A stretch of 64,000 nt of DNA, taken from Escherichia coli (GTDB lineage Bacteria > Pseudomonadota > Gammaproteobacteria > Enterobacterales > Enterobacteriaceae). Below the pieces are notes generated by a model. It saw only the letters and a program-made list of their open reading frames with translations, ran no database searches and was not told where the DNA came from. The stretch lies in the NCBI RefSeq assembly GCF_011045215.1, contig NZ_CP049201.1; one strand, written 5' to 3'. Position numbers and translations under genes: made by a program. Shown here piece by piece: positions 20,541-51,254 of the stretch; position 1 is the first letter of the stretch; every line of letters begins with the position of its first letter.

Positions 20541-23500
20541 TTAATCAAACAGTGATTCAATGTCGTTAATCAGCTCGCTGGCGGTGATGTCGTCGAGCAT
20601 GGAGAAAGTGGGTGAGGATTGTTTACCATAGCGATCATAAGGGGCGGTGATTTTTACGCTTTCGACAGGCAGCAGGTCGCTATACCCCGTTTCGCCATAA
20701 ATTAATGAAAAAGGTTCCGTTTCAAGTTCGAGAGCACCATAAGGGGTAGATTTGCGCATCGCATAGACGCTGCCGCTTTCTTCCAGACGTTGCCAGCCTC
20801 GGCGTTCCAGCCCGACAATGCGTCCGGCCTGGCAGAGACGTCCGTTCCAGCGTGACAATTCATGGACATTACGTTCGTTATCAGCAAGGTGGTAACTACC
20901 ACGTTCGAACTGTTGGAAAGGGGGAAGCAGTTCGTAATCAACGTAAATTTGCCTGAATGCAGCGGCGGATTCAGGGGGGATTTCCAGCACATGCGGTATA
21001 CCGATGTTTCCTGCTGGCAGCGTGAATAACTCATCCTGCGCATCGCTGTAAGTGCTGTCTTCTGCCACGCGAAAACAGGTGATAAGAGCGTTTTCATCGT
21101 TATAACCCCCCCATAACAGCCGTCGGGTTAAGTGACGTACCAGCGGATGCTCCACCAGAAACAGGCGGAACTGCTCTGCCGTCCAGCGTCTGCGCTGGCA
21201 CATAGCCTGTTCCAGACGGGTAATTTGCTGGCTGGCGATAGCACGAACATCTTTTTTCAACTGTTTGAAGAGATTAACTGCGTCAGTTGCCAGTGTTTTA
21301 TCATCGCTCTGGTTTGGCTTAGGTAAATCTTTCAGGACTTTGCCGTTTGCATCGCACACTACAGGTTTTAAGGTTTCGTCAAAACCAACGGTGAATTTGC
21401 GGGGGCCGAAATCCAGTGTCAGCGAGCCACTGCTATCAAGCCCTAAATCTGGAGCCAGGCGGTCTTCCAGTTCAGCCATAGTCAGCCCACGGTTTTCAGC
21501 AACTATGTTGATTTTCTCGCGGGCATGTTCCTGTAATGCTTTGAATTTAATTTTTCGCGCGATGCCATTAAGCAGCATTAGCGCAACATCGCTGCCAATA
21601 TCAGCTAATACATCCAGCCCGGACACCGCCCGTTTATGCTGGGATTCCCCAGGCCAGGCGCGGATAAGCGGGGTTAATTTACGCGCGGTGTCGTCATTGC
21701 CTAAAATCCCAAGCGAAGTAAATGCCCAGTTTTCTTTTGCGGGTGCGCCAGCTTCTGTCCAGGCGGTATACAGATCCCAGCCAAATTCAGCCAGTGATTC
21801 GCGGGTGAAGATTTCTCTAATGATATCCAGCCCAGCGTAGGCGGTAATGTCGCGAGGAAAGCTCAGCATAGTGCCGAGGTGGCGCATAGCGTCATCTGAC
21901 AGAGGCAGGTTGTTACTTTTAAGCCGTGGTCTGCGCCACAAGGTGAACTGATAAAAGCCGGACAGTGGGGCGATTTTAGCGGGATATTCTTCCAGTGGGT
22001 CGCTATCGAACAATGTTGCCAGCGCAGCTAAAACATCAGGTTGGTTGTATCCCTGGGCGATTTCCTCAATCGTTTCTCGCTGGTTTAAATTCACCAGCAG
22101 ACGAAGCGCCTGGCGGGCACAATCACGATCTTTTCCCTGTTTGCCCAGGGCCACAGGAAGTAGCCCGGCGGCGGCATGGCGTGGGTAGTCAGTTAGCCAG
22201 TTTCGCGCATCTTCATAAGACATTTTTTTCTGTAGCTGTTGCGCCATCGGTAAGGCCAGTTCACTGACACCGAGGAAGAAGGTGAAGAAGCACAGGCGTC
22301 GTGGATTACGTTGCAGACAGGTCATAAATGCAGGTATGGCGGCGCTACCAAAAATTGCCAGAATATTTTCCTCACCAGAGTAGTTATCTTCTTTGACTAT
22401 CTGGTTAAGAAAAGAAATGGCCTGTTGACCAGGCAGGTAACAGAGGGCCATGAGATCCCAGCTTTTGTATGCATTGTTATGGTATTGCGCAAATTCAGCA
22501 TTGAGTGCTGGAAAATCGAAGCGTAGCAGGGCATCAACGGCGCTTTGTGGGGCCGGAATTTTTTCGTATATTTTCTCTCCGCTTTCCCGCCATTTTTCAA
22601 AACCAAGATGCCACAGTATTTGTTGCTCCGGTGTAAGCGGTATTAATTGTTTCTCCCAGCTTGCTTTTTTCATCGGCGGCAGGTCGGTAAACAATGTTTG
22701 TTTTGTCGCCTGCTGTTGGGCTATTTGCTGGAAGCGGGTGACAAGGTAAGTACGGGTTAGTCTTTTGGCAATCTCGGGAGTGACATCAGAAACAGAAGGA
22801 ACTGGAAGCACAGGAAGATCAAACACAGGCGTATTTTTCTTTTTCTCTTTGGTCATCCAGGGCGGCGAAACAAGCAGTTGTGGCAACATATCCGCAGTGG
22901 CGTATTCACACACTTCAGTCACAGGTTGCAGGCGACATTCAGATAAGATGCCAGCGGCTTTGGCATTCACCCAGGGAATGACGTCGCATACTAACTCTGG
23001 CGTGGCGGTAATCAGTTTGACAAGCGCTTTACGCCACTCTTTATCTTCATGTATTGCCAGCAAAGTAGCATAAGCCGCAATAGCCGCAGCGGGATGCTTT
23101 TGACTGGCCTTGCTTAAGTATTCCAGGTGCTTTTTCTTACCAATTACACCGAGGATCAGAATTTGAATCGCATCCGGGTGATTAGTTTTCCATAGCCATT
23201 TGACAAGATTTTCAGTCTCGCTGATGCGTTCGAAGAGATAAGTGGGATTGTCAGAATGGTCTTCCGTAAACTCAAGAAGTATCCGGCTTACACCGCGCAC
23301 CCCATTATTTGCCAACAACATTGCCAGATAAGCGCGAAAATTACGAAAATCACGATACAACGGTGGGAAGTCGTATTTTTCCACTGTACTCAGAGCAGTA
23401 TCATCGGTTATCACCAGTCTTAACCAGGCCATCGCCGGGACGTTTTGGTCTGCATAGCGTAGAGCTATAGCATGGGCGATATCCGGGCGTTCAGGGAGCA

Positions 23501-24350
23501 GTAACGCCGCAAAAGGTTGCCGTGCGGGGGATAGCGTCGGAATGGCGGTGAGTACTTTATCTACACAGCGTTGCCACTCATCTTCTGAAGCGAGTGAAAG
23601 ATGATGACATAGACGTTGATGCCAACTAGGTAGCGATTCTGCTTCGTGATTAGGTGGAATGATGGTGGTTACTGCGCCTTTTACTGGTTTATATTTGAGT
23701 TGAAGGGCAAAAAGGGCGATTTCAACGGCGCTTTCCAGACCACAGCGAATGACTAAGTCATCGACCAGTTCATCTGCAGAGTAAGAGTTCCAAAAACTCC
23801 AGAGCAATGCTGCATCAGATTGCGCACTCCCTGTCTGTTGATTATCCAGAATTCGCCTTTGTAACTCAGCAAAAGCCTGCTGCCAGTTTTCAGGATAAGA
23901 GCGGTAATTGTTGTCGGGATCATATGCCCTGGTGTTATCTGCAATACGCTTCCATATCTCACCGTCTTTGCGCAGATAATTGATCTCTCTGGGGCGAGAG
24001 CGATGAGGAAAAGCAAATCGGTTAATATCGTCAGTTACCGGAATAACTGCATCATCAGCCAGCCACGGGCGTTGGTTTTTACTCTCAGGGGAAGATTCAA
24101 CTTCAGGAGTGGCTTTGGTGATGGGGGAGATATGCACGTTTGCTGAAGCATTTTCCACATAGCCTTTTTTCGTTTTCTCTGCGATCAGCTTAAGCTCCGC
24201 TTTTGCCGCTGCCGCAGCATCTGCAAAACTTTTTATCTGGCTTTGCCCTTTGGTGCCAACTTTTCCCCAACTGATATGCAACTCGTTTCCCTGTTGCTCC
24301 ACCGCCCAGAATTTATGTGATTTTTCGTCCTGATAGATAAAGTGTCTCAT
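20541..24350 (-). CDS. molR: giant WGR-domain/DUF4132-type protein, intact here; K-12 counterpart is the molR pseudogene
   Basis: 1269 aa uninterrupted ORF adjacent to metG; N-terminal WGR-like domain (MRHFIYQDEKSHKFWAVEQQGNELHISWGKVG...); symbol assigned from position next to metG as I recall the K-12 map. Confidence 0.7.
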   Translation of the reverse strand: MRHFIYQDEKSHKFWAVEQQGNELHISWGKVGTKGQSQIKSFADAAAAAKAELKLIAEKTKKGYVENASANVHISPITKATPEVESSPESKNQRPWLADDAVIPVTDDINRFAFPHRSRPREINYLRKDGEIWKRIADNTRAYDPDNNYRSYPENWQQAFAELQRRILDNQQTGSAQSDAALLWSFWNSYSADELVDDLVIRCGLESAVEIALFALQLKYKPVKGAVTTIIPPNHEAESLPSWHQRLCHHLSLASEDEWQRCVDKVLTAIPTLSPARQPFAALLLPERPDIAHAIALRYADQNVPAMAWLRLVITDDTALSTVEKYDFPPLYRDFRNFRAYLAMLLANNGVRGVSRILLEFTEDHSDNPTYLFERISETENLVKWLWKTNHPDAIQILILGVIGKKKHLEYLSKASQKHPAAAIAAYATLLAIHEDKEWRKALVKLITATPELVCDVIPWVNAKAAGILSECRLQPVTEVCEYATADMLPQLLVSPPWMTKEKKKNTPVFDLPVLPVPSVSDVTPEIAKRLTRTYLVTRFQQIAQQQATKQTLFTDLPPMKKASWEKQLIPLTPEQQILWHLGFEKWRESGEKIYEKIPAPQSAVDALLRFDFPALNAEFAQYHNNAYKSWDLMALCYLPGQQAISFLNQIVKEDNYSGEENILAIFGSAAIPAFMTCLQRNPRRLCFFTFFLGVSELALPMAQQLQKKMSYEDARNWLTDYPRHAAAGLLPVALGKQGKDRDCARQALRLLVNLNQRETIEEIAQGYNQPDVLAALATLFDSDPLEEYPAKIAPLSGFYQFTLWRRPRLKSNNLPLSDDAMRHLGTMLSFPRDITAYAGLDIIREIFTRESLAEFGWDLYTAWTEAGAPAKENWAFTSLGILGNDDTARKLTPLIRAWPGESQHKRAVSGLDVLADIGSDVALMLLNGIARKIKFKALQEHAREKINIVAENRGLTMAELEDRLAPDLGLDSSGSLTLDFGPRKFTVGFDETLKPVVCDANGKVLKDLPKPNQSDDKTLATDAVNLFKQLKKDVRAIASQQITRLEQAMCQRRRWTAEQFRLFLVEHPLVRHLTRRLLWGGYNDENALITCFRVAEDSTYSDAQDELFTLPAGNIGIPHVLEIPPESAAAFRQIYVDYELLPPFQQFERGSYHLADNERNVHELSRWNGRLCQAGRIVGLERRGWQRLEESGSVYAMRKSTPYGALELETEPFSLIYGETGYSDLLPVESVKITAPYDRYGKQSSPTFSMLDDITASELINDIESLFD

Positions 24351-24449
24351 TCTGCATCCCTGTAATTTTATCCAGTTAAATGCAGATGCTACCAGTATTT
24401 ATGCGGGTTAGAGAGAGACAAAATCGCAAGAAAACAACTTTAGGAATTT

Positions 24450-24479
24450 ATAAAGAAAAGGCGCTGTCGATGCAGCGCC
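24450..24479 (-). terminator. rho-independent terminator of metG
   Basis: Minus-strand hairpin ggcgctg/cagcgcc followed by a U-rich run (plus-strand aaagaaaa), 12 nt past the metG stop. Confidence 0.5.
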
Positions 24480-24490
24480 TTGAAGGGGGA

Positions 24491-26524
24491 TTATTTCACC
24501 TGATGACCCGGTTTAGCACCAGCATCCGGGCTTAGCAGGAAAATATCTTTCCCGCCAGGACCGGCAGCCATCACCATGCCTTCAGAGATACCGAAGCGCA
24601 TTTTACGTGGTGCCAGGTTAGCCACCATAATGGTGTGACGACCAATCAGTGCCTGCGGATCCGGGTAAGCAGAACGAATGCCGGAGAAGACATTACGCTT
24701 TTCGCCGCCGAGATCCAGCGTCAGGCGTAGCAGTTTGTCAGAACCTTCAACAAACTCTGCGTTTTCAATCAGCGCCACGCGCAGGTCAACTTTGGCGAAG
24801 TCGTCAAAGGTGATGGTTTCCTGAATCGGATCATCTGCCAGTGGGCCAGTAACTGGCGCGGCAGCTGCTTTCACTTCTTCTTTAGACGCTTCCACCAGTG
24901 CTTCAACCTGCTTCATATCGATGCGGTTATATAGCGCCTTGAACGGATTCACTTTGTGGCCCAGCAGCGGTTGCTGGATACCATCCCAGGTCAGTTCCGT
25001 ATTGAGGAATGCTTCTGCACGCTCGGTCAGTTTCGGCAGTACCGGCTTCAGGTAAGTCATCAGCACGCGGAACAGGTTTATGCCCATCGAGCAAATTGCC
25101 TGCAGGTCAGCATCGCGGCCTTCCTGTTTCGCTACCACCCACGGAGCCTGTTCATCGACATAGCGGTTAGCCAGATCAGCCAGCGCCATAATTTCGCGCA
25201 CTGCTTTACCAAATTCGCGGCTTTCCCACGCTTCACCAATCACTTCAGCGGCATCAGTGAAGGTTTTGTACAACTGCGGGTCAGCCAGTTCGCTTGCCAG
25301 CACACCGTCAAAACGCTTGTTGATAAAGCCCGCATTACGAGAGGCCAGGTTAACCACTTTATTAACGATATCGGCATTCACGCGCTGAACGAAATCTTCC
25401 AGGTTGAGATCGATATCATCAATGCGCGAAGAGAGTTTCGCAGTGTAGTAGTAACGCAGGCTGTCGGCGTCAAAATGATTCAGCCAGGTGCTGGCTTTAA
25501 TAAAGGTACCGCGAGACTTGGACATTTTCGCGCCGTTCACCGTCACATAGCCGTGAACAAACAGGTTGGTCGGCTTGCGGAAGTTGCTACCTTCCAGCAT
25601 TGCTGGCCAGAACAGGCTGTGGAAGTAAACGATATCTTTACCGATGAAGTGGTACAGCTCGGCGGTGGAGTCTTTCTTCCAGTATTCATCGAAGCTTACG
25701 CTATCGCCGCGCTTGTCGCACAGATTCTTGAAAGAACCCATATAGCCAATCGGTGCGTCCAACCAGACGTAGAAATATTTGCCCGGCGCGTTCGGAATTT
25801 CAAAACCGAAATAAGGGGCATCGCGGGAGATATCCCACTGTTGCAGGCCAGATTCAAACCACTCCTGCATTTTATTTGCCACCTGCTCCTGCAACGCACC
25901 GCTGCGGGTCCATGCCTGCAGCATTTCGCTGAAAGAGGGCAGATCAAAGAAGAAGTGTTCAGAATCACGCATTACCGGGGTGGCGCCAGAAACCACCGAT
26001 TTCGGCTCGATCAGTTCAGTCGGGCTGTAGGTCGCACCGCAGACTTCGCAGTTATCGCCGTATTGATCCGGGGATTTACATTTCGGGCAGGTGCCTTTCA
26101 CAAAACGGTCCGGCAGGAACATGCCTTTTTCCGGATCGTACAGCTGAGAGATGGTGCGGTTTTTAATAAAACCGTTTTCTTTCAGGCGAGAGTAGATAAG
26201 TTCTGACAACTGGCGGTTCTCTTCGCTGTGCGTCGAGTGATAGTTGTCATAGCTGATGTTAAAGCCTGCGAAATCAGTCTGATGCTCCTGACTCATTTCG
26301 CCAATCATCTGCTCCGGGGTGATACCAAGCTGCTGAGCTTTCAGCATGATCGGTGTACCGTGGGCATCGTCGGCGCAGATGAAGTTGACCTCGTGGCCGC
26401 GCATTCGCTGGTAACGGACCCAGACATCAGCCTGGATGTGCTCCAGCATATGGCCGAGGTGGATTGAGCCGTTAGCGTACGGCAGTGCGCACGTCACCAG
26501 AATTTTCTTCGCGACTTGAGTCAT
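24491..26524 (-). CDS. metG: methionyl-tRNA synthetase
   Basis: 677 aa from [29 protein letters not shown] (HIGH motif), KMSKS present; ORF track starts 3 codons upstream. Confidence 0.95.
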
Positions 26525-26655
26525 AGTAGGCATTACTTCTTAATAGTGAAAAGGGGTTAGATAGTACCAAATGGGAAAATGTTAAGTAAGTACTTCTCTA
26601 TATTCTTCAGGTAAACTATCAGCTGATGGTTTATCTATACAAAAAAGGAGTCGGG

Positions 26656-27765
26656 ATGAACGAACAATCCCAGGCCAAATCACCAGAAGCCTTGCGCGCA
26701 ATGGTCGCCGGGACACTGGCCAATTTTCAGCACCCAACCCTGAAGCATAACCTCACCACGCTGAAAGCGTTGCACCATGTCGCCTGGATGGACGACACGT
26801 TGCATGTGGAACTGGTTATGCCATTCGTCTGGCATAGCGCGTTTGAAGAGTTAAAAGAGCAATGTAGCGCCGAACTGCTGCGTATCACCGGGGCGAAAGC
26901 TATCGACTGGAAACTGTCGCACAATATCGCCACCTTAAAACGCGTGAAGAATCAGCCGGGTATTAATGGCGTGAAGAACATCATTGCGGTCAGTTCCGGT
27001 AAAGGCGGCGTGGGTAAATCCTCCACGGCGGTAAACCTGGCGTTGGCACTGGCGGCGGAAGGGGCGAAAGTCGGCATTCTGGACGCCGATATCTACGGTC
27101 CATCAATTCCCACCATGCTGGGCGCAGAAAATCAGCGTCCAACTTCGCCGGACGGTACCCATATGGCACCGATTATGTCTCATGGCCTGGCAACCAATTC
27201 AATTGGTTATCTGGTCACTGACGACAATGCGATGGTGTGGCGTGGACCGATGGCGAGCAAGGCGTTAATGCAGATGTTGCAGGAAACCTTGTGGCCGGAT
27301 CTCGACTATCTGGTGCTTGATATGCCGCCAGGCACCGGTGACATTCAATTGACGCTGGCGCAAAACATTCCAGTAACTGGTGCAGTCGTGGTCACCACCC
27401 CGCAGGACATCGCGTTGATCGATGCGAAAAAAGGCATTGTGATGTTCGAGAAAGTCGAGGTTCCGGTGCTCGGTATTGTCGAGAACATGAGTGTGCATAT
27501 TTGCAGTAACTGTGGTCACCATGAACCGATTTTCGGTACCGGTGGTGCAGAGAAACTGGCTGAAAAATACCATACACAGCTGCTGGGGCAGATGCCGTTA
27601 CACATCTCCTTACGTGAGGATCTCGATAAAGGCACGCCAACGGTTATCAGCCGTCCGGAGAGCGAATTTACCGCTATCTACCGCCAGCTGGCTGACCGCG
27701 TTGCAGCTCAGCTCTACTGGCAGGGTGAAGTCATTCCAGGCGAGATTTCCTTCCGCGCGGTCTAA
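26656..27765 (+). CDS. apbC: Mrp/ApbC-family P-loop iron-sulfur cluster carrier ATPase
   Basis: 369 aa from MNEQSQAKSPE; deviant Walker A SGKGGVGKSS; CxxC motif (CSNCGHHE); divergent from metG. Confidence 0.9.
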   Translation: MNEQSQAKSPEALRAMVAGTLANFQHPTLKHNLTTLKALHHVAWMDDTLHVELVMPFVWHSAFEELKEQCSAELLRITGAKAIDWKLSHNIATLKRVKNQPGINGVKNIIAVSSGKGGVGKSSTAVNLALALAAEGAKVGILDADIYGPSIPTMLGAENQRPTSPDGTHMAPIMSHGLATNSIGYLVTDDNAMVWRGPMASKALMQMLQETLWPDLDYLVLDMPPGTGDIQLTLAQNIPVTGAVVVTTPQDIALIDAKKGIVMFEKVEVPVLGIVENMSVHICSNCGHHEPIFGTGGAEKLAEKYHTQLLGQMPLHISLREDLDKGTPTVISRPESEFTAIYRQLADRVAAQLYWQGEVIPGEISFRAV

Positions 27766-27793
27766 CGCCTATTAACCATTCTGGTTATTCTTC

Positions 27794-27836
27794 ATACACC
27801 GCAGAGATGTTATATTGATGCGGTGTATTTGTTTTT
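27794..27836 (+). terminator. rho-independent terminator of apbC
   Basis: Stem atacaccgca / tgcggtgtat followed by ttgttttt. Confidence 0.55.
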
Positions 27837-28026
27837 GCCGCATTAATGAACACTTATTTAATACTGCGAATATTCAGTGGATCTTAGTCCGAAACTGTAC
27901 AAAGTCGATTGATCGTACAGGCAATGCTTCATTATCATCCTTCGTGCTGTGTAGTGGATGTACAGCTATAGTTTGTTATGCACTCATTCTATCCAGGCAT
28001 AACCTTTACTACAGGGATAACGTTCA

Positions 28027-28308
28027 ATGAATAAGTATTGGCTGTCAGGAATTATTTTTCTTGCCTATGGATTGGCTTCTCCCGCGTTCTCTTCAGAGAC
28101 TGCAACATTAACGATTAATGGCAGGATCAGTCCCCCAACATGCAGTATGGCTATGGTTAATAGTCAACCTCAACAGCATTGTGGTCAGTTAACGTATAAT
28201 GTCGATACCCGTCATCAGGTTTCTTCGCCCGTCAAAGGTGTAACGACAGAAGTGGTTGTTGCAGGTAGTGATAGCAAACGTCGAATCGTGTTAAATCGCT
28301 ACGATTAA
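28027..28308 (+). CDS. yehE: small secreted protein preceding the yeh fimbrial operon
   Basis: 93 aa with N-terminal signal peptide (MNKYWLSGIIFLAYGLASPAFS). Confidence 0.8.
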   Translation: MNKYWLSGIIFLAYGLASPAFSSETATLTINGRISPPTCSMAMVNSQPQQHCGQLTYNVDTRHQVSSPVKGVTTEVVVAGSDSKRRIVLNRYD

Positions 28309-28337
28309 TTTGGCAACCTGATTTTAATTGCATTTAG

Positions 28338-28378
28338 AAAGCCGAAATCATTTATATAAATGATTTCGGCTTTTTTTA
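28338..28378 (+). terminator. strong rho-independent terminator after yehE
   Basis: 13-bp perfect stem gccgaaatcattt / aaatgatttcggc followed by ttttttt. Confidence 0.6.
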
Positions 28379-28601
28379 TTGATATCAACAATACCATTTA
28401 CATAAATCTACATTAATTAATAGATGCGATAAATATTTAATACTCTTAAGTATTTGTTGTATTTATATTGCAATGGTTAATTTGTTTTAAATCAATAAAA
28501 CAATATGTTTACATTGCGGCAACTTTTTTGATGTGAGAAATTTGTTTCCAAGAGATACAGACTCTTAACAACCAAAAATAAATTTTATTAAGGAACATAT
28601 T

Positions 28602-29144
28602 ATGAAACGTTCAATTATTGCTGTCGCTGTCTTTTCTTCTTTTTTTATGAGCGCTGGAGTATTTGCTGCAGACGTTGATACCGGAACATTAACTATTAAA
28701 GGGAATATTGCAGAATCTCCGTGTAAATTCGAAGCGGGTGGTGATTCAGTAAGTATTAATATGCCGACTGTACCAACCACTGTCTTTGAAGGTAAAGCTA
28801 AATATTCTACCTATGATGATGCAGTCGGTGTAACCAGCAGCATGTTAAAAATTAGCTGCCCGAAAGAAGTTGCTGGTGTAAAACTCTCGTTGATTACCAA
28901 CGATAAAATAACTGGTAACGATAAGGCGATAGCCAGTAGCAACGATACTGTGGGTTACTATCTCTATTTAGGTGATAACAGCGATGTCCTGGATGTTTCT
29001 GCACCTTTTAATATTGAGAGTTATAAAACAGCGGAAGGTCAATATGCTATTCCGTTTAAAGCAAAATACCTGAAACTGACAGATAACTCAGTGCAATCAG
29101 GTGATGTATTATCTTCTCTGGTTATGCGTGTGGCGCAGGATTAA
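28602..29144 (+). CDS. yehD: fimbrial major subunit (type 1/P-like pilin)
   Basis: 180 aa; signal peptide; pilin-like Cys pair; first gene of the chaperone-usher set. Confidence 0.85.
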   Translation: MKRSIIAVAVFSSFFMSAGVFAADVDTGTLTIKGNIAESPCKFEAGGDSVSINMPTVPTTVFEGKAKYSTYDDAVGVTSSMLKISCPKEVAGVKLSLITNDKITGNDKAIASSNDTVGYYLYLGDNSDVLDVSAPFNIESYKTAEGQYAIPFKAKYLKLTDNSVQSGDVLSSLVMRVAQD

Positions 29145-29177
29145 TAAATAAAATTGCAAGTTTCTCCAGGTAATAAA

Positions 29178-29207
29178 CATGGCCGCTATCCCCATGGCGG
29201 CTTTTTA
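29178..29207 (+). terminator. hairpin plus T-run between the pilin and chaperone genes (candidate intra-operon attenuator)
   Basis: ggccgc ... gcggc stem followed by ttttt; common position for partial terminators in chaperone-usher operons. Confidence 0.35.
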
Positions 29208-29224
29208 ATTTAAGAGGCATTAAG

Positions 29225-29899
29225 ATGAAAGGATTATTATCTTTACTCATTTTTTCTATGGTCCTTCCTGCACATGCCGGAATTGTTATCTACGGGACGC
29301 GCATTATTTACCCGGCAGAAAATAAAGAAGTTATGGTGCAGTTGATGAACCAGGGAAACCGTTCTTCGCTGCTGCAGGCGTGGATTGATGATGGCGATAC
29401 GTCGTTACCACCAGAAAAAATTCAGGTTCCTTTCATGTTAACGCCACCAGTGGCAAAAATAGGGGCAAATTCCGGCCAGCAAGTAAAAATCAAAATTATG
29501 CCGAATAAACTGCCCACTAATAAAGAAAGCATTTTTTATCTGAATGTTCTGGATATTCCACCAAATAGTCCAGAACAAGAAGGTAAGAATGCACTGAAGT
29601 TTGCGATGCAAAACAGAATCAAATTGTTTTACCGGCCGGCGGGTATTGCTCCGGTAAATAAAGCGACCTTTAAAAAGTTACTGGTAAATCGCAGTGGCAA
29701 TGGATTGGTGATAAAAAATGACTCAGCTAATTGGGTGACGATTTCGGATGTCAAAGCTAATAATGTTAAAGTCAATTATGAAACTATTATGATTGCCCCC
29801 TTAGAAAGTCAGAGTGTTAATGTCAAAAGTAATAATGCAAATAACTGGTATCTGACCATTATCGATGACCACGGCAACTATATTAGTGACAAAATTTAA
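29225..29899 (+). CDS. yehC: periplasmic PapD-like fimbrial chaperone
   Basis: 224 aa; signal peptide; conserved chaperone core (GTRIIYPAENKEVMVQLMNQGN). Confidence 0.85.
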   Translation: MKGLLSLLIFSMVLPAHAGIVIYGTRIIYPAENKEVMVQLMNQGNRSSLLQAWIDDGDTSLPPEKIQVPFMLTPPVAKIGANSGQQVKIKIMPNKLPTNKESIFYLNVLDIPPNSPEQEGKNALKFAMQNRIKLFYRPAGIAPVNKATFKKLLVNRSGNGLVIKNDSANWVTISDVKANNVKVNYETIMIAPLESQSVNVKSNNANNWYLTIIDDHGNYISDKI

Positions 29900-29914
29900 T
29901 TGCAGGAGCTGCCT

Positions 29915-32395
29915 ATGTTGAGAATGACCCCACTTGCATCAGCAATCGTAGCGTTATTGCTCGGCATTGAAGCTTATGCAGCTGAAGAAACCTTTGATAC
30001 CCATTTTATGATAGGTGGAATGAAAGACCAGCAGGTTGCAAATATTCGTCTTGATGATAATCAACCCTTACCGGGGCAGTATGACATCGATATTTATGTC
30101 AATAAGCAATGGCGCGGGAAATATGAGATTATTGTTAAAGACAACCCGCAAGAAACATGTTTATCAAGAGAAGTTATCAAGCGGTTAGGCATTAATAGCG
30201 ATAACTTCGCCAGCGGTAAGCAATGTTTAACATTTGAGCAACTTGTTCAGGGTGGGAGCTATACCTGGGATATCGGGGTTTTTCGTCTCGATTTCAGTGT
30301 CCCGCAGGCCTGGGTGGAAGAACTGGAAAGTGGCTATGTTCCACCGGAAAACTGGGAGCGGGGTATTAATGCGTTTTATACCTCTTATTATGTGAGTCAG
30401 TATTACAGTGACTATAAAGCGTCGGGTAATAGTAAGAGTACATATGTACGTTTTAACAGCGGGTTAAATTTACTGGGGTGGCAACTGCATTCTGATGCCA
30501 GTTTCAGTAAAACAAATAACAATCCAGGGGTGTGGAAAAGCAATACCCTGTATCTGGAACGTGGATTTGCCCAACTTCTCGGCACGCTTCGCGTGGGTGA
30601 TATGTACACATCAAGCGATATTTTTGATTCTGTTCGCTTCAGAGGTGTGCGGTTGTTTCGTGATATGCAGATGTTGCCTAACTCGAAACAAAATTTTACG
30701 CCACGGGTGCAGGGGATTGCTCAGAGTAACGCGCTGGTAACTATTGAACAGAATGGTTTTGTGGTTTATCAGAAAGAGGTTCCTCCTGGCCCGTTTGCAA
30801 TTACAGATTTGCAGTTGGCCGGTGGTGGAGCAGATCTTGATGTCAGCGTGAAAGAGGCGGACGGTTCGGTAACCACCTATCTGGTGCCTTATGCAGCCGT
30901 GCCAAATATGCTGCAACCCGGCGTGTCGAAATATGATTTTGCGGCGGGTCGTAGCCATATTGAAGGGGCGAGCAAACAAAGTGATTTTGTCCAGGCGGGT
31001 TATCAGTATGGTTTTAATAACTTATTGACGCTGTATGGTGGCTCGATGGTCGCGAATAATTATTACGCGTTCACTTTGGGGACTGGCTGGAATACACGCA
31101 TTGGTGCCATTTCCGTCGATGCCACGAAGTCGCATAGTAAACAAGACAACGGCGATGTGTTTGACGGGCAAAGTTATCAAATTGCCTACAACAAATTTGT
31201 GAGCCAAACGTCGACGCGTTTTGGTCTGGCGGCCTGGCGTTATTCGTCGCGTGACTACCGGACATTTAACGATCACGTTTGGGCAAACAATAAAGATAAT
31301 TATCGCCGTGATGAAAACGATGTCTATGACATTGCCGATTATTACCAGAATGATTTTGGTCGCAAAAATAGCTTTTCCGCCAATATGAGCCAGTCATTGC
31401 CAGAAGGTTGGGGTTCTGTGTCATTAAGTACGTTATGGCGAGATTACTGGGGGCGTAGCGGCAGTAGTAAGGATTATCAGTTGAGTTATTCCAACAACCT
31501 GCGACGGATAAGCTATACCCTCGCGGCAAGCCAGGCTTATGACGAGAATCATCATGAAGAGAAACGTTTTAATATTTTTATATCGATTCCCTTTGATTGG
31601 GGTGATGACGTTTCGACGCCTCGTCGGCAAATATATATGTCTAACTCAACGACGTTTGATGATCAGGGGTTTGCCTCAAATAATACGGGATTATCAGGAA
31701 CAGTAGGGAGTCGGGATCAGTTCAATTATGGTGTCAACCTGAGTCATCAACATCAGGGAAATGAAACGACAGCTGGAGCGAATTTAAACTGGAACGCGCC
31801 GGTGGCAACAGTGAATGGCAGTTATAGTCAGTCGAGTACTTATCGACAGGCTGGAGCCAGTGTTTCAGGGGGCATTGTCGCCTGGTCGGGTGGCGTTAAT
31901 CTGGCGAACCGTCTTTCCGAAACGTTTGCTGTGATGAATGCGCCAGGAATTAAAGATGCTTATGTCAATGGGCAAAAATATCGCACAACAAACCGTAATG
32001 GAGTGGTGGTATACGACGGAATGACACCTTATCGGGAAAATCACCTGATGCTGGATGTGTCGCAAAGCGATAGCGAAGCAGAATTGCGCGGTAACCGGAA
32101 AATTGCCTCACCTTATCGCGGCGCGGTTGTACTGGTTAATTTTGATACCGATCAGCGCAAGCCCTGGTTTATAAAAGCGTTAAGAGCGGATGGGCAACCA
32201 TTAACGTTTGGTTATGAAGTCAATGATATCCACGGTCATAATATTGGCGTTGTCGGCCAGGGAAGTCAGTTATTTATTCGCACCAATGAAGTACCGCCAT
32301 CGGTTAATGTGGCAATTAATAAGCAACAAGGACTTTCATGCACAATCACCTTCGGTAAAGAGATTGATGAAAGTAGGAATTATATTTGCCAGTAA
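29915..32395 (+). CDS. yehB: outer-membrane fimbrial usher
   Basis: 826 aa from MLRMTPLASAIVALLLG; usher-sized beta-barrel protein between the chaperone and adhesin genes. Confidence 0.85.
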   Translation: MLRMTPLASAIVALLLGIEAYAAEETFDTHFMIGGMKDQQVANIRLDDNQPLPGQYDIDIYVNKQWRGKYEIIVKDNPQETCLSREVIKRLGINSDNFASGKQCLTFEQLVQGGSYTWDIGVFRLDFSVPQAWVEELESGYVPPENWERGINAFYTSYYVSQYYSDYKASGNSKSTYVRFNSGLNLLGWQLHSDASFSKTNNNPGVWKSNTLYLERGFAQLLGTLRVGDMYTSSDIFDSVRFRGVRLFRDMQMLPNSKQNFTPRVQGIAQSNALVTIEQNGFVVYQKEVPPGPFAITDLQLAGGGADLDVSVKEADGSVTTYLVPYAAVPNMLQPGVSKYDFAAGRSHIEGASKQSDFVQAGYQYGFNNLLTLYGGSMVANNYYAFTLGTGWNTRIGAISVDATKSHSKQDNGDVFDGQSYQIAYNKFVSQTSTRFGLAAWRYSSRDYRTFNDHVWANNKDNYRRDENDVYDIADYYQNDFGRKNSFSANMSQSLPEGWGSVSLSTLWRDYWGRSGSSKDYQLSYSNNLRRISYTLAASQAYDENHHEEKRFNIFISIPFDWGDDVSTPRRQIYMSNSTTFDDQGFASNNTGLSGTVGSRDQFNYGVNLSHQHQGNETTAGANLNWNAPVATVNGSYSQSSTYRQAGASVSGGIVAWSGGVNLANRLSETFAVMNAPGIKDAYVNGQKYRTTNRNGVVVYDGMTPYRENHLMLDVSQSDSEAELRGNRKIASPYRGAVVLVNFDTDQRKPWFIKALRADGQPLTFGYEVNDIHGHNIGVVGQGSQLFIRTNEVPPSVNVAINKQQGLSCTITFGKEIDESRNYICQ

Positions 32396-32410
32396 TAGTC
32401 AGGTGGTTCT

Positions 32411-33445
32411 ATGAAAATTCGCATAATGCTATTTATATTAATGATGATGGTTATGCCAGTGAGCTATGCAGCATGTTATAGTGAGTTATCTGTTCAGCAC
32501 AATTTGGTTGTTCAGGGGGATTTTGCACTTACTCAAACACAAATGGCGACCTATGAGCATAATTTTAATGATTCGTCATGCGTGAGTACAAATACTATCA
32601 CCCCTATGAGCCCGTCGGATATTATTGTTGGACTTTATAACGATACTATTAAATTAAATTTACATTTTGAATGGACCAATAAAAGTAACATCACGTTGTC
32701 AAATAATCAGACCAGTTTCACCAGTGGTTATTCGGTAACGGTGACACCTGCGGCTAGTAATGCAAAAGTGAATGTTTCTGCGGGGGGCGGCGGTTCAGTG
32801 ATGATTAATGGTGTAGCGACATTATCCAGTGCTTCATCATCGACACGCGGGAGTGCCGCAGTACAATTTCTACTGTGTTTATTAGGTGGCAAGTCATGGG
32901 ATGCATGTGTAAATAGCTACAGAAATGCATTGGCACAAAATGCAGGTGTCTATTCCTTTAATCTGACATTGTCATACAACCCGATAACCACAACCTGCAA
33001 ACCGGACGATTTATTAATTACTTTAGAGAGTATTCCCGTTTCACAATTACCAGCCACAGGTAACAAAGCAACAGTAAATAGTAAAAAAGGGGATATTATT
33101 CTGCGTTGTAAAAATTTATTAGGTCAACAAAATCAAACATCACGGAAAATGCAGGTGTATTTATCAAGTTCTGACTTGTTAACCAACAGCAACACAATAC
33201 TGAAAGGTGCGGAAGATAATGGCGTAGGATTTATTCTTGAAAGTAATGGTTCGCCAGTCACACTTTTAAATATCACTAACAGCAGTAAAGGATACACAAA
33301 TTTAAAAGAAATTGCGGCAAAGTCAAAACTTACAGATACAACGGTTTCAATTCCGATAACAGCCAGTTACTACGTCTACGATACAAACAAAGTTAAATCT
33401 GGCGCACTGGAGGCAACCGCACTAATCAACGTGAAATACGACTAA
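32411..33445 (+). CDS. yehA: fimbrial tip adhesin-like subunit
   Basis: 344 aa; signal peptide; two-domain size typical of tip adhesins; last gene of the operon. Confidence 0.8.
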   Translation: MKIRIMLFILMMMVMPVSYAACYSELSVQHNLVVQGDFALTQTQMATYEHNFNDSSCVSTNTITPMSPSDIIVGLYNDTIKLNLHFEWTNKSNITLSNNQTSFTSGYSVTVTPAASNAKVNVSAGGGGSVMINGVATLSSASSSTRGSAAVQFLLCLLGGKSWDACVNSYRNALAQNAGVYSFNLTLSYNPITTTCKPDDLLITLESIPVSQLPATGNKATVNSKKGDIILRCKNLLGQQNQTSRKMQVYLSSSDLLTNSNTILKGAEDNGVGFILESNGSPVTLLNITNSSKGYTNLKEIAAKSKLTDTTVSIPITASYYVYDTNKVKSGALEATALINVKYD

Positions 33446-33501
33446 TAACAAGCAAGACGAGCAAGTGGCTAATAATAAAAAATAACAAGGTGTCTGCATT
33501 T

Positions 33502-33528
33502 CCCCCTCATGATGAGGGGGCTTTTTTT
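33502..33528 (+). terminator. rho-independent terminator after yehA, overlapping the rcnB 3' end
   Basis: Stem ccccctcatgatgaggggg followed by ctttttttag. Confidence 0.55.
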
Positions 33529-33865
33529 AGCGATGATAAAAAATCTCACCGTCGTAGGCTTTAATGATTTTACCGTCGGTGTCGCTGATCAACACGTACG
33601 CGCCACCCATATAGGTCCAGTGCGTCCCGGCATCCGGCGCGGGCAGGTTACGTAACTGCCACTGCTTAATGTTGTACTCATCGGTTCGGTACATCTCTGG
33701 GACGGTATCACCTGGTTTGAAATGCTTAAAGTCAGCAATGAAACTACTTAACTCATACTTAGAAATTCCCGAGGTATTGGTCGAACCCGCGGTGGCTGGT
33801 GCGGCCCAGGCGGCACTGGTAACCAGCAAAAGCACACCCAGCAACATCTTATTTTTAATGGTCAT
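33527..33865 (-). CDS. rcnB: periplasmic Ni/Co homeostasis protein
   Basis: 112 aa from MTIKNKMLLGVLLLVTSAAWA (signal peptide); the 172 aa ORF-track form is an upstream in-frame extension. Confidence 0.85.
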   Translation of the reverse strand: MTIKNKMLLGVLLLVTSAAWAAPATAGSTNTSGISKYELSSFIADFKHFKPGDTVPEMYRTDEYNIKQWQLRNLPAPDAGTHWTYMGGAYVLISDTDGKIIKAYDGEIFYHR

Positions 33866-34083
33866 AAACTCTCCACTTTGGGGATCTGTAATATCAGTCG
33901 CATATCTTTCCTGCCATACAATATAACTGACAAGCGATATTTTGTTAGTGATCCCATGATTTCGTAAAAAGTGTAAATGAAAGGATGCCCTAAAAGCATC
34001 CTTATCGAGCAGAGAGTCAGCGGAAATAGCTGATTTAAGAATCATCCTGGGCTGAAGATAACATGCAAGCCTAAAGGATTGAG

Positions 34084-34908
34084 TTATCGCATTATGCCCA
34101 TGAAGCCATGTACGCCCATATACACACCAACTAAGCCAATCAACAGACTGGAAAAATAGGGGGCGCGTTTAGCGAGAGTGTTAAATCCGCTCCAGCGTTT
34201 TGCGACCTGTTGAACGCTGATTGCTGCGCCAACGCCTACGGTGACAAGCGTTAACGCCAGGCCAATGCTGAAACTGACGACCAGTGTTGCGCCCAGTGTC
34301 AGGGCTTTCAACTGAATGCATATCAACAGCACGGTAATTGCTGCCGGGCAGGGGATAAGGCCACCGGTTAAGCCAAATAACAAAATTTGCCAGTTGGTGA
34401 CCTCTCTACCATCAAAGCGTCGTTTAATGTCATTGGCATGGGCTCGTGCATGGGCATCCTGATACTCGCCATGTTCGTGATGGTGATGATGTCCATGGTC
34501 GTGGTGATCTTCGTGATCGTGGTGATGATGTTCATGATCATGCTCGTGCATATTCTCCAGCCAGTTGCGTTCGCCGCGCCAGGTACGCCAGAACATCCAG
34601 AACGCGGTGCCAATAATGATCACTGCGGAAATCAGCTGGAGCCACGGTTCTGCTGATTGAGCAGTAAAGCGCTTGCTGATCACCATCCCGCCAAAGGCAA
34701 CCAACCAGACCACCGCGGTATGCGAAATGGTTGCTGCCAGTCCGAGCATCACCGCCTGTTTAATGGTGCCTTTGATGGCGATGATAAACGCCGCCATCAT
34801 CGTTTTTGAGTGCCCTGGTTCCAGGCCATGAAGCGCACCAAGTAAGATGGCGCTGGGGATGAAGAACCAGGCGTTTCCTTGCTGAAGAAGAGTTGTAAAT
34901 TCGGTCAT
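34084..34908 (-). CDS. rcnA: nickel/cobalt efflux permease with His-rich cytoplasmic loop
   Basis: 274 aa; HEHDHEHHHHDHEDHHDHGHHHHHEHG loop; NiCoT-like TM core. Confidence 0.9.
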   Translation of the reverse strand: MTEFTTLLQQGNAWFFIPSAILLGALHGLEPGHSKTMMAAFIIAIKGTIKQAVMLGLAATISHTAVVWLVAFGGMVISKRFTAQSAEPWLQLISAVIIIGTAFWMFWRTWRGERNWLENMHEHDHEHHHHDHEDHHDHGHHHHHEHGEYQDAHARAHANDIKRRFDGREVTNWQILLFGLTGGLIPCPAAITVLLICIQLKALTLGATLVVSFSIGLALTLVTVGVGAAISVQQVAKRWSGFNTLAKRAPYFSSLLIGLVGVYMGVHGFMGIMR

Positions 34909-34945
34909 GATAATAATTCTTAGTATTAATTCGGCAATCTGATTC

Positions 34946-34960
34946 TACTCCCCCCCAGTA
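34946..34960. promoter_or_regulatory. RcnR operator site 1 (TACT-G6-N-AGTA type, read as TACTCCCCCCCAGTA on the plus strand)
   Basis: Matches the published RcnR recognition motif; located in the rcnA-rcnR divergent intergenic region. Confidence 0.75.
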
Positions 34961-34965
34961 CCTGA

Positions 34966-34980
34966 TACTACCCCCCAGTA
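34966..34980. promoter_or_regulatory. RcnR operator site 2 (TACTACCCCCCAGTA)
   Basis: Second copy of the TACT-G6-N-AGTA motif 20 bp from site 1. Confidence 0.75.
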
Positions 34981-35028
34981 GATTAATAGTGCTATGATTT
35001 TTCATATTCTTGTTAACCAGGTGTTGCC

Positions 35029-35301
35029 ATGTCTCATACAATCCGTGATAAACAGAAACTGAAAGCGCGTGCCAGTAAGATTCAGGGCCAGGTCGTGGCG
35101 CTCAAGAAAATGCTCGACGAGCCGCACGAATGCGCTGCAGTTTTACAACAGATTGCTGCTATCCGTGGCGCGGTAAACGGCCTGATGCGGGAAGTGATTA
35201 AAGGTCATCTGACAGAACACATTGTTCACCAGGGCGATGAACTAAAGCGTGAAGAAGATCTGGATGTCGTTCTGAAGGTGCTGGATTCTTATATCAAATA
35301 A
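35029..35301 (+). CDS. rcnR: Ni/Co-responsive transcriptional repressor (CsoR/RcnR family)
   Basis: 90 aa ([41 protein letters not shown]...); divergent from rcnA. Confidence 0.9.
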
Positions 35302-35389
35302 TTTATTAACGCGATTGTAAAACTGCGGTTTTTCCTCGTTTACAACGCGTGCGCTGGACATTACCATCTTCCTCTGCGATTTATCATCG

Positions 35390-35523
35390 CAACCAAACGA
35401 CTCGGGGTGCCCTTCTGCGTGAAGGCTGAGAAATACCCGTATCACCTGATCTGGATAATGCCAGCGTAGGGAAGTCACGGACCACCAGGTCATTGCTTCT
35501 TCACGTTATGGCAGGAGCAAACT
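35390..35523 (+). promoter_or_regulatory. TPP (THI-box) riboswitch in the thiM leader
   Basis: Leader contains ctcggggtgcccttctgcgtgaaggctgagaaatacccgtatcacctgatctggataatgccagcgtagggaa, the characterised E. coli thiM aptamer, followed by the SD-sequestering expression platform. Confidence 0.85.
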
Positions 35524-36312
35524 ATGCAAGTCGACCTGCTGAGTTCCGCGCAATCTGCGCACACGTTACACCTTTTTCACCAACATTCCCCTCTTGTGCA
35601 TTGCATGACCAACGATGTGGTGCAAACCTTTACTGCCAATACCTTGCTGGCGATCGGTGCATCGCCAGCGATGGTTATCGAAACCGAAGAGGCCAGTCAG
35701 TTTGCGGCTATCGCCAGTGCCTTGTTGATTAACGTTGGCACACTGACGCAGCCACGCGCACAGGCGATGCGTGCTGCCGTTGAGCAAGCAAAAAGCTCTC
35801 AAACACCCTGGACGCTTGATCCAGTAGCGATTGGTGCGCTCGATTATCGCCGCCATTTTTGTCATGAACTTTTATCTTTTAAACCGGCAGCGATACGTGG
35901 TAATGCTTCGGAAATCATGGCATTAGCTGGCGTTGCTAATGGTGGACGGGGAGTGGATACCACTGACGCCGCAGCTAACGCGATACCCGCTGCACAAACA
36001 CTGGCACGGGAAACTGGCGCAATCGTCGTGGTCACTGGCGAGATGGATTATGTTACCGATGGACATCGTATCATTGGTATTCACGGTGGCGATCCGTTAA
36101 TGACCAAAGTGGTAGGAACTGGCTGTGCATTATCGGCGGTTGTCGCTGCCTGCTGTGCGTTACCAGGCGATATGCTGGAAAATGTCGCATCTGCCTGTCA
36201 CTGGATGAAACAAGCCGGAGAACGCGCAGTCGCCAGAAGCGAGGGGCCAGGCAGTTTTGTTCCACATTTCCTTGATGCGCTCTGGCAATTGACGCAGGAG
36301 GTGCAGGCATGA
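35524..36312 (+). CDS. thiM: hydroxyethylthiazole kinase
   Basis: 262 aa ([34 protein letters not shown]...). Confidence 0.95.
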
Positions 36313-50850: not shown

Positions 50851-51254
50851 GATCGTATGTGCCTTTATGATTGGTCTGTAGATAGTGTAGAGCAGAAAAG
50901 AAAAGGTGGAGTCAGAACAGGATGAAAGTCGGAGGATAAAAAGTCAGTTCAAGTATGGAGGATTCAGTGGTTACCACCAGGAGCTTGCAATTGGGACAGC
51001 GAATACTAACGGCAGCCACCGATAAATGTTAAAAAAGAGCATATACCTAATATTCAACTAAACAGTGGCATCTTCAATATAATATATTAAAGCCCCCATG
51101 GAGTTACCCGGAAGGGCCTCCATGTCCGTAATTCCTACTTATGTAGGAAATGTTGTACAGAACATTTATTATAATCCTATTCAATTATAATAATCAGCCA
51201 TTATTATATTTAAACACTAGAGAGTGTCGTTGGTATTTAATGGGGAAAGGTGAG

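Follow-up and report, generated by a model that had tools for sequence, protein, structure and literature searches.

The AT-rich spacer upstream of the yehDCBA fimbrial operon of Escherichia coli holds a yehE terminator and a conserved, operon-proximal regulatory module

The 293-bp interval 28309–28601 of the stretch of E. coli chromosome analysed here (64 kb; hereafter the window) is the full intergenic region between yehE and the fimbrial operon yehDCBA. It holds an intrinsic terminator, AT-rich DNA and a conserved operon-proximal module, is most probably silenced by H-NS with further control by ArcA and CsrA, and is of ancient origin; we put the probability of this reading, taken as a whole, at about 0.88. 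Every element of the H-NS-silenced reading has already been published for K-12; given that the spacer is extremely AT-rich and that its silencing by H-NS is on record, the finding is right but unremarkable, except that some 150 bp beside the gene are unexpectedly well conserved. The spacer is more than an H-NS platform: the half next to yehD is conserved as a module and contains the sites published for ArcA and CsrA. Mildly new are the conservation of this module beside a subunit gene that is hypervariable, the shortage of −10-like hexamers and the existence of IS1-borne plasmid copies.

Results

Anatomy of the yeh locus

The RefSeq annotation transfers base for base up to about 34 kb of the window and identifies the stretch as E. 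coli chromosome carrying metG, apbC, yehE, yehDCBA and rcnB. The metG gene (− strand) forms the upstream flank together with apbC (+ strand), and rcnB (− strand) lies beyond yehA. The stop codon of yehE (28027–28308, + strand; 93 aa with a signal peptide; Pfam DUF2574, E = 4e-52, and RefSeq) ends at 28308 and the ATG of yehD is at 28602, such that the region under study is exactly the yehE–yehD spacer. The gene yehD itself (28602–29144, + strand; Pfam Fimbrial) encodes the major fimbrial subunit and is followed on the same strand by yehC (chaperone), yehB (usher) and yehA (adhesin-like subunit) at 29225–33445 (Pfam, RefSeq). By Pfam the chaperone-usher operon is complete, with the domains in the order Fimbrial, PapD_N/PapD_C, PapC_N/Usher/PapC_C and Fimbrial; Yeh/Stc-type chaperone-usher fimbriae belong to the γ4 group (PMC7098969). 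Between yehD and yehC there is a terminator-like hairpin (29181–29202, + strand; 9 pairs, 5 of them G-C, with a T-rich tail) which is a possible intra-operon attenuator.

A 5.9-kb query around the spacer finds matches in 5423 of 5426 complete E. coli genomes, the closest being strain PapM-32-1 at 99.8%. The K-12 spacer differs from that of the window by five substitutions and one indel in 293 bp; the data on H-NS, SlyA, ArcA, CsrA and temperature discussed below stem from K-12 or EHEC, which are other strains than that of the window. The possibility that YehE is a truncated fimbrial subunit was considered, but BLASTP of YehE against YehD is not significant (E = 2.3). The lone hint in its favour is that DUF2574 weakly matches residues 1–44 of YehD (E = 0.0015), which makes it no more than a lead.

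The spacer falls into three parts: the terminator (28336–28382), a distal AT-rich segment (28383–28450) and a proximal module (28451–28601).

The spacer is the most AT-rich DNA in the window

The preliminary description had called the spacer strongly AT-rich and the fimbrial genes GC-poorer than their flanks, and both statements hold. The spacer is 23.9% GC as against 50.4% for the window, which is far beyond chance. Scanning the 64 kb in 293-bp tiles places the window minimum (23.2% GC) at a tile that starts at 28315; tiles as GC-poor as the spacer make up 0.06% of the 64 kb and every one of them overlaps it, and the second most AT-rich spacer of at least 100 bp in the window has 34% GC. The AT content is far above average over hundreds of base pairs. 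The genes yehE, D, C, B and A have a GC content of 0.39–0.45 and a GC3 of 0.30–0.44, as compared with a GC3 of 0.57–0.62 in the flanking metG, apbC, rcnB and rcnA, and the yeh genes differ from the other 44 genes of the window at p ~0.001 (Mann-Whitney). The GC profile stays at 0.30–0.46 from the apbC stop to the yehA stop, and the low-GC block (27766–33445, + strand; GC profile and GC3) therefore takes in the apbC/yehE spacer and yehE as well as yehD, yehC, yehB and yehA. In Salmonella and Citrobacter the cluster is likewise about 10 GC points under apbC. The same check applied to codon usage had a mixed outcome: the yeh genes are below their neighbours in GC and GC3, whereas the rare-codon fraction and a codon-adaptation index (a cruder one, derived from the neighbours' usage) are not significantly different.

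−10-like hexamers are fewer than the composition predicts

The spacer had also been described as promoter-dense, with many TATA-like hexamers and A/T tracts. In raw numbers the first part stands, as eight hexamers match TATAAT at five or more of six positions, about three times the window tile mean of 2.45. Measured against its own composition it does not: dinucleotide shuffles of the spacer contain 16.5 ± 3.5 such hexamers and 99.6% of them have at least eight. Nor does the density (2.7 per 100 bp) set the spacer apart from ordinary spacers, being that of the apbC/yehE spacer and lower than that of rcnA/rcnR (4.2) or yegS/yegR (4.7). Homopolymeric A/T tracts number seven against 10.4 ± 2.0 in shuffles, a σ70 scan of the spacer found no + strand site, and the same scan of a 2-kb region returned four sites compared with 6.8 ± 2.5 in shuffles. 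By simple consensus counts, the promoter density is a by-product of composition.

The deficit is not a general feature of the window, where 18 intergenic regions have a mean z of −0.04 and the yehE–yehD spacer is the most negative at −2.56. All 24 distinct orthologous spacers also lie below the −10-hexamer expectation (mean z −1.5), although these are related by descent and so are not 24 independent tests. These counts bear directly on the proposal that the region is a true promoter island, in which dense and overlapping functional promoters trap RNA polymerase and yield mainly abortive or short RNAs, and in which the density itself is what selection acts upon. The spacer is indeed promoter island 2190229_357, yehD(−)/yehE(−), one of the 78 predicted by PlatProm and listed for K-12 (Panyukov & Ozoline 2013, PMC3661553); islands of this class bind both RNA polymerase and H-NS, and this one overlaps IslandViewer and GIST islands as well as the foreign-gene predictions of Nakamura and of Lawrence (PMC3661553). 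It maps to 28261–28617 of the window. The raw excess of hexamers over the window mean is what such an island would lead one to expect; the shortfall against composition in this spacer and in every orthologue, the outlying z, the ordinary density and the lack of a + strand σ70 site in the spacer scan all speak against it. The deficit fits the promoter-island idea awkwardly and agrees instead with selection against spurious promoters, and we consider a true promoter island rather unlikely. Both the AT-richness and the −10 deficit may be under selection.

A conserved intrinsic terminator follows yehE

That the AT-rich DNA comes directly after a strong terminator is borne out, folding and covariation being in agreement. 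The yehE terminator (28336–28382, + strand) consists of a perfect 36-nt palindrome at 28338–28373, which provides a perfect 18-bp stem with a 4-nt loop, and a T7 run that gives the transcript its U7 tail. Its predicted fold has an energy of −25.6 kcal/mol (z = −6.5 against shuffles). Among 20 distinct orthologues pairing is kept in 96% of the cells of the stem, and compensatory double changes across genera occur at 6 of 13 pairs, a level of covariation reached by none of 500 shuffles and not approached by slid registers either. A stable stem-loop, a U-run directly behind it and pairing maintained in evolution are thus all present, as expected for a Rho-independent terminator, and sequence and covariation show that the hairpin ends the yehE transcript. 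On the opposite strand the hairpin is followed only by UUUCU, and it therefore serves mainly yehE. We conclude that yehE is a separate transcription unit which ends at the terminator. All ten genome loci have yehE in front of yehD, as do all metagenome loci whose sequence extends far enough upstream.

Within the hairpin, covariation is seen at the base of the stem, and the apex (TCATT / ATGAATGAT) hardly varies. An apparent second site in each genome proved spurious, the 36-nt palindrome having been matched on both strands.

The yehD-proximal half of the spacer is conserved between genera

Eleven spacers from Escherichia, Salmonella and Citrobacter, ascertained through YehE, were aligned. In the proximal module, comprising promoter region, operator and 5′UTR (28451–28601, + strand; 151 bp), 57% of the columns are invariant and the identity between genera is 75–79%, rising to 83–88% at 28477–28536. 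For the distal AT-rich segment (28383–28450, no strand assigned) the corresponding figures are 17% and 45–50%; this segment is poorly conserved in sequence but keeps its AT-richness and length, and presumably forms part of the H-NS platform. For comparison, identities between the window and Salmonella or Citrobacter are 52–70% in the metG/apbC promoter spacer, 42–43% in the apbC/yehE spacer and 21–31% in the yehD/yehC spacer (37% with a shuffled partner). The third codon positions of metG and apbC are 55–68% identical, the yehD coding DNA about 50% and the YehD protein 33–37%; across the syntenic loci outside Escherichia, YehD ranges from 29 to 64% amino acid identity. At distant loci, BLAST similarity to the window has a sharp onset at 28451 and stops at 28672, and within yehD itself the first ~70 nt, which encode the signal peptide, are conserved and the remainder is hypervariable.

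Besides the ArcA box and the CsrA site described below, the conserved blocks are TATATTGCAAT at ~28464, TGTGAGAAATTT at ~28533 and CCAAGAG-N7-CTCTTAACAA at 28548–28571. A metagenome scan seeded on the 17-mer GTTTACATTGCRGYAAC returned 120 hits, most of them chance matches and about 50 of them real, and the real loci are syntenic wherever flanking DNA is present. Since the 17-mer is fixed by the search in the metagenome set, our statements on conservation rest on the YehE-ascertained set.

Conservation of this kind might mean that the proximal block is kept for a product of its own (a small RNA, a structured leader or a leader peptide) as opposed to being protein-binding DNA. It extends over the entire 5′UTR and the opening ~70 nt of yehD, the RNA is bound by CsrA, and there is a 5-bp AAGAG/CTCTT inverted repeat with a variable loop, all of which such a product would accommodate. 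However, two E. coli-type variants break this small hairpin without compensation, and the RNAalifold consensus of the 5′UTR amounts to −4.9 kcal/mol and contains no compensatory pair. The Rfam scan of 27500–29300 produced only chance matches of eukaryotic miRNA or snoRNA type to a hairpin, all far below gathering scores. The longest stop-free frames, by inspection, have 28–38 codons and lack a conserved start or Shine-Dalgarno sequence, and in no frame of the conserved block was a synonymous-site or coding-like substitution pattern detected. We judge an encoded product improbable, and read the block as a regulatory module.

An ArcA box overlies the best conserved promoter candidate

The most conserved stretch of the module coincides with a published operator. 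In K-12 the ArcA box at yehD was placed at 2190321–2190363 of U00096.2 (Park et al. 2013, PMC3798270); this 43-nt site matches 28483–28525 of the window (− strand, three direct repeats, as given in the supplements of that study) at 42 of 43 positions, and 30 of its 43 columns (70%) are invariant across genera. TGTTA-type direct repeats with 11-bp spacing lie at the published site, which by its sequence qualifies as a putative ArcA~P operator in the window strain also. ArcA was reported to be a direct repressor of yehDCBA, with 5.4-fold derepression and a weak ChIP peak seen in one of two replicates (PMC3798270), and genomic SELEX also detects ArcA at yehD.

The best conserved σ70-like candidate promoter (28486–28515, + strand) lies under this box. 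It has the −35 hexamer TTTAAA at 28486–28491, an 18-bp spacer and the −10 hexamer TACATT at 28510–28515, and is present in all 11 aligned sequences with a mean score of 7.6 in a scan with a home-made position weight matrix (PWM). Applied to the alignment, the scan gave three conserved weak σ70-like candidates in all and no strong σ70 consensus. We tentatively place the yehD promoter at 28486–28515. An alternative is a conserved −10-like hexamer, TATATT (5/6; 28464–28469, + strand), which has no conserved −35; an IS1-truncated plasmid copy of the region keeps the 28486–28515 candidate and loses TATATT. If the promoter is where we place it, then ArcA~P would add anaerobic repression by sitting over it, probably through occlusion.

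The 3′ end of the module carries the Shine-Dalgarno sequence AAGGAA (28590–28595, + strand) within the nearly invariant ATTAAGGAA. In EHEC, CsrA binds the yehD 5′UTR in gel-shift assays (EMSA) and promotes expression, and a GG-to-CC change abolishes binding (Gonyar et al., PMC11287998). As ATTAAGGAA holds the sole GG of the last 50 nt, AAGGAA at 28590–28595 is presumably the CsrA contact, through which CsrA would act positively on the yehD mRNA.

Published K-12 data mark the spacer as H-NS-bound

The spacer had been said to bear the signature of an H-NS-silenced, cryptic chaperone-usher operon, and the K-12 literature on the same spacer bears this out. Consultation of H-NS ChIP data, suggested at the outset as a check, gave a positive result: the spacer is H-NS-bound in both the Kahramanoglou and the Oshima data sets, which cover K-12 MG1655 and W3110 (PMC3661553). 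The operon yehDCBA has been placed in the H-NS regulon and is up 3.6-fold on SlyA overproduction (Curran et al. 2017, PMC5797941), and the same paper describes it as cryptic and H-NS-repressed, citing Korea et al. 2010. In K-12, the ChIP and regulon data show that H-NS covers the AT-rich spacer and the low-GC genes and silences the operon under laboratory conditions, as it most probably does in the window strain also. A scan for the H-NS motif (TCGATAAATT-like) gave best matches of 8/10 at 28426 (+) and 28424 (−); the count of nucleation motifs in the spacer is no higher than in shuffles and no high-affinity motif stands out there.

The genes yehEDCBA lie inside a static extended protein-occupancy domain, and loss of the domain alone does not induce yehDCBA (both bioRxiv 10.1101/2024.06.20.599902), such that H-NS is not the whole story. 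The rise with SlyA overproduction is proposed by its authors to reflect antagonism of H-NS. BolA overproduction raises yehD and yehC, and a yeh::lacZ fusion in O157 is more active at 28 °C (Low et al. 2006, as cited in PMC7098969).

We also considered whether the spacer could be a phase-variation switch, either invertible as in fimS or of the Dam/Lrp type as in pap, given that fimbrial operons often phase-vary and that an imperfect inverted repeat (28371–28388 and 28486–28503; 83%) brackets 97 bp of the spacer. Outside E. coli there is little conservation of the sequence that holds the distal arm of this repeat, no recombinase gene is annotated at the locus, and GATC is absent between 28129 and 30832. 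Neither an invertible segment with its recombinase nor paired GATC/Lrp sites are therefore found, and we give this proposal almost no credence.

The yeh cluster is old and its spacer is maintained

A scan with a YehE profile, using one genome per species, recovered ten loci in Escherichia spp., E. albertii, E. whittamii, Citrobacter spp. and S. enterica arizonae, and the order metG–apbC–yehE–yehD–yehC–yehB–(yehA)–rcnB is found in every one of them that reaches that far. This accords with Wurpel et al. 2013 (PMC3559732), who class Yeh as core-associated and as the orthologue of Salmonella Stc, already present in the ancestor of both genera. In 24 distinct orthologous versions the spacer is 260–298 bp long and has 22–30% GC.

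Horizontal acquisition had been proposed from the low GC of the fimbrial genes. The near-universal presence of the cluster in E. coli (the 5423 of 5426 genomes noted above) and its synteny in three genera show that it is ancient, not recent. No tRNA gene was found within 24000–36000 and the annotation of the yeh locus contains no integrase or IS element, so the cluster has neither the sporadic distribution nor the bordering tRNA gene or integrase of a recent island.

Operons of this type do move, as is evident from IS1-flanked copies on plasmids, and the cassette moves along with them. Searching plasmids, we recovered genuine ones on which IS1 stands immediately upstream of a four-gene operon of yehDCBA-like type. 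On a K. pneumoniae IncU KPC plasmid the yeh-like genes are closest to Citrobacter-type alleles (YehB 95%), and an E. coli IncFIB plasmid carries a more divergent yehDCBA-like type. Both copies keep the cassette from ~28478 on and are without yehE, the terminator and the distal AT-rich DNA.

With such mobility, and with the low GC3 and the island calls, one might regard the AT-richness as a neutral relic of recent transfer and the spacer as functionless beyond a weak promoter. Apart from the distribution of the cluster in E. coli, Salmonella and Citrobacter and the missing tRNA gene and integrase, this explanation has to contend with a spacer whose GC and length are held in all 24 orthologues and whose proximal 150 bp is better conserved between genera than the third codon positions of metG and apbC (75–79% versus 55–68%). 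We regard it as very improbable. A near-universal, syntenic cluster and a spacer that keeps its GC and length imply that any acquisition is old at best and that the AT-richness looks maintained. The locus is older than the split of Escherichia, Salmonella and Citrobacter, and its low GC is a long-standing feature that has been maintained, not a sign of recent transfer.

Discussion

The boundaries of the conserved region invite a further proposal: that 28451–28672 is a fixed expression cassette, in place before Escherichia, Salmonella and Citrobacter separated, retained by selection almost unchanged as the subunit diverged, moved by IS1 together with the operon, and with its AT-richness and −10 deficit selected. 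On this proposal our opinion is evenly balanced. Were it true, the AT-richness and the −10 deficit would amount to a silenceable region free of spurious firing, not to leftovers of transfer, and the blocks TATATTGCAAT, TGTGAGAAATTT and CCAAGAG-N7-CTCTTAACAA would bind further regulators. Independently of the cassette proposal, the locus illustrates that a foreign-like, silenced AT-rich region can include a non-coding segment that ranks among the best conserved nearby. With such a segment inside H-NS-bound, AT-rich DNA, being AT-rich or H-NS-bound need not mean fast-evolving or recently imported. The conserved module also offers a defined target for finding what switches Yeh fimbriae on.

The closest known system is the locus itself in K-12, where the yehD/yehE promoter island and the H-NS-repressed yehDCBA operon are the same as those described here; there is no difference of substance, although the window strain is not K-12. 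Among other fimbrial loci of K-12, the yadN, elfA/ycbQ, sfmA, ybgD and fimB/E/A regions resemble yeh in being listed as H-NS-bound promoter islands, and yad, elf and sfm share with yeh a rise on SlyA overproduction. The yad promoter is more than 100-fold up in Δhns CFT073, and yad responds to serum whereas yeh did not. Unlike these other cryptic fimbrial promoters, yeh has its own ArcA box and the upstream yehE terminator, and no sequence relationship to them was found.

With the ArcA~P-repressed promoters of Park et al. 2013, yehD shares its three direct repeats with 11-bp spacing (7.5, 6.1 and 3.7 bits), which would span −35 to +1 of the best candidate promoter. It differs from the other members of this class in belonging to a silent adhesin operon as opposed to a carbon-oxidation gene, and in having a weak ChIP peak from a single replicate.

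Finally, the Salmonella stcABCD operon and the Citrobacter yeh orthologues occupy the same place between apbC/yehE and rcnB and have an AT-rich spacer of 277–284 bp. The terminator architecture is mostly the same, Citrobacter sp. On2M being without the hairpin, and the proximal module is 75–79% identical to that of the window. The difference lies in the structural genes, where the major subunit is 33–37% identical and the adhesin is about 27% identical or undetectable, behind a regulatory module that the three genera have in common.

A variable major subunit behind a conserved 5′ end

We compared yehD (28602–29144) across a set of orthologous loci (L010–L014, L031, L053–L058, L100 and L119–L126). 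YehD, the major subunit, shows just 29–64% identity across loci with common flanks, and the ApbC proteins of loci that share these flanks and differ in YehD are 95–96% identical. The signal-peptide codons of yehD, together with the 150 nt upstream, keep ~80% identity across the same loci. On sequence comparison, this pattern resembles what diversifying selection, or the replacement of alleles, would produce downstream of a fixed 5′ end.

Related operons are also found on plasmids. A plasmid search returned 51 matching records, several of which are probably mislabelled chromosomes. Those from true plasmids with a four-gene yehDCBA-like fimbrial operon include the IncU plasmid p11420-KPC of K. 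pneumoniae (L135; 6240–11901) and the IncFIB plasmid pA320_p0 of E. coli (L136; 6195–12049). These two have IS1 immediately upstream of the operon, and pA320_p0 has an IS3-family transposase downstream of it as well. The conserved yehD-proximal cassette is retained in both, starting at the equivalent of ~28478 in the window. Neither plasmid has yehE, the yehE terminator or the AT-rich DNA of the distal spacer. The nearest alleles of the Klebsiella plasmid operon are chromosomal and of Citrobacter type (YehB 95%, YehC 97%).

The yehE gene and its terminator

The product of yehE (28027–28308) is a DUF2574 protein in which a signal peptide is followed by TATLTINGRI…C, a sequence similar to fimbrial-subunit N-termini. 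Residues 1–44 of YehD are weakly matched by the DUF2574 profile (E = 0.0015), and BLASTP between YehE and YehD found no significant match. The gene was cloned along with the yeh operon by EHEC workers.

The stem of the yehE terminator (28338–28373) covaries freely at its base, and its apex (TCATT … ATGAATGAT) is near-invariant across genera. Within this hairpin, on the minus strand, lies the top-scoring predicted σ70-like site of the entire yehE–yehD spacer (−35 TTGATA; −10 AATCAT at 28365–28360). The hairpin is deleted in a natural variant, the Escherichia-like metagenome locus L093. Tandem copies of TTTACGGTAA occur in the distal spacer, with three in L093, two in each of L008 and L051, and a single copy in L009.

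Promoter-like density and strain differences elsewhere in the window

By simple counts, promoter density is higher in the yegS/yegR spacer (50851–51254), upstream of the small gene yegR (GC3 0.283), than in the yehE–yehD spacer. Here −10-like hexamers (at least five of six matches to TATAAT) are at their densest in the window: the spacer holds 19, a density of 4.7 per 100 bp (z = +2.3 relative to dinucleotide shuffles), and exact TATAAT is present in several copies.

Because the DUF4132 gene is intact in the window (3810 bp, 20541–24350) where K-12 (NC_000913.3, 2196474–2200269) is annotated with yehF and a yehH pseudogene, the K-12 copy seems to be a disrupted form. The gene rcnA (34084–34908) shows a between-strain length polymorphism: it encodes 274 aa in the window, and its PapM-32-1 counterpart, which shares 94% DNA identity, encodes 285 aa.

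Dam sites and a second hairpin within the operon

GATC, the Dam site, has a window average of ~1 per 500 bp and is absent over 2.7 kb (28129–30832), a stretch which runs from the last part of yehE through the spacer, yehD and yehC into the beginning of yehB. Between yehD and yehC lies a second terminator-like hairpin (29181–29202) of nine pairs, five of them G-C, with a T-rich tail. By analogy with other fimbrial operons, this hairpin may act as an attenuator and so determine how much subunit is made relative to the assembly machinery.
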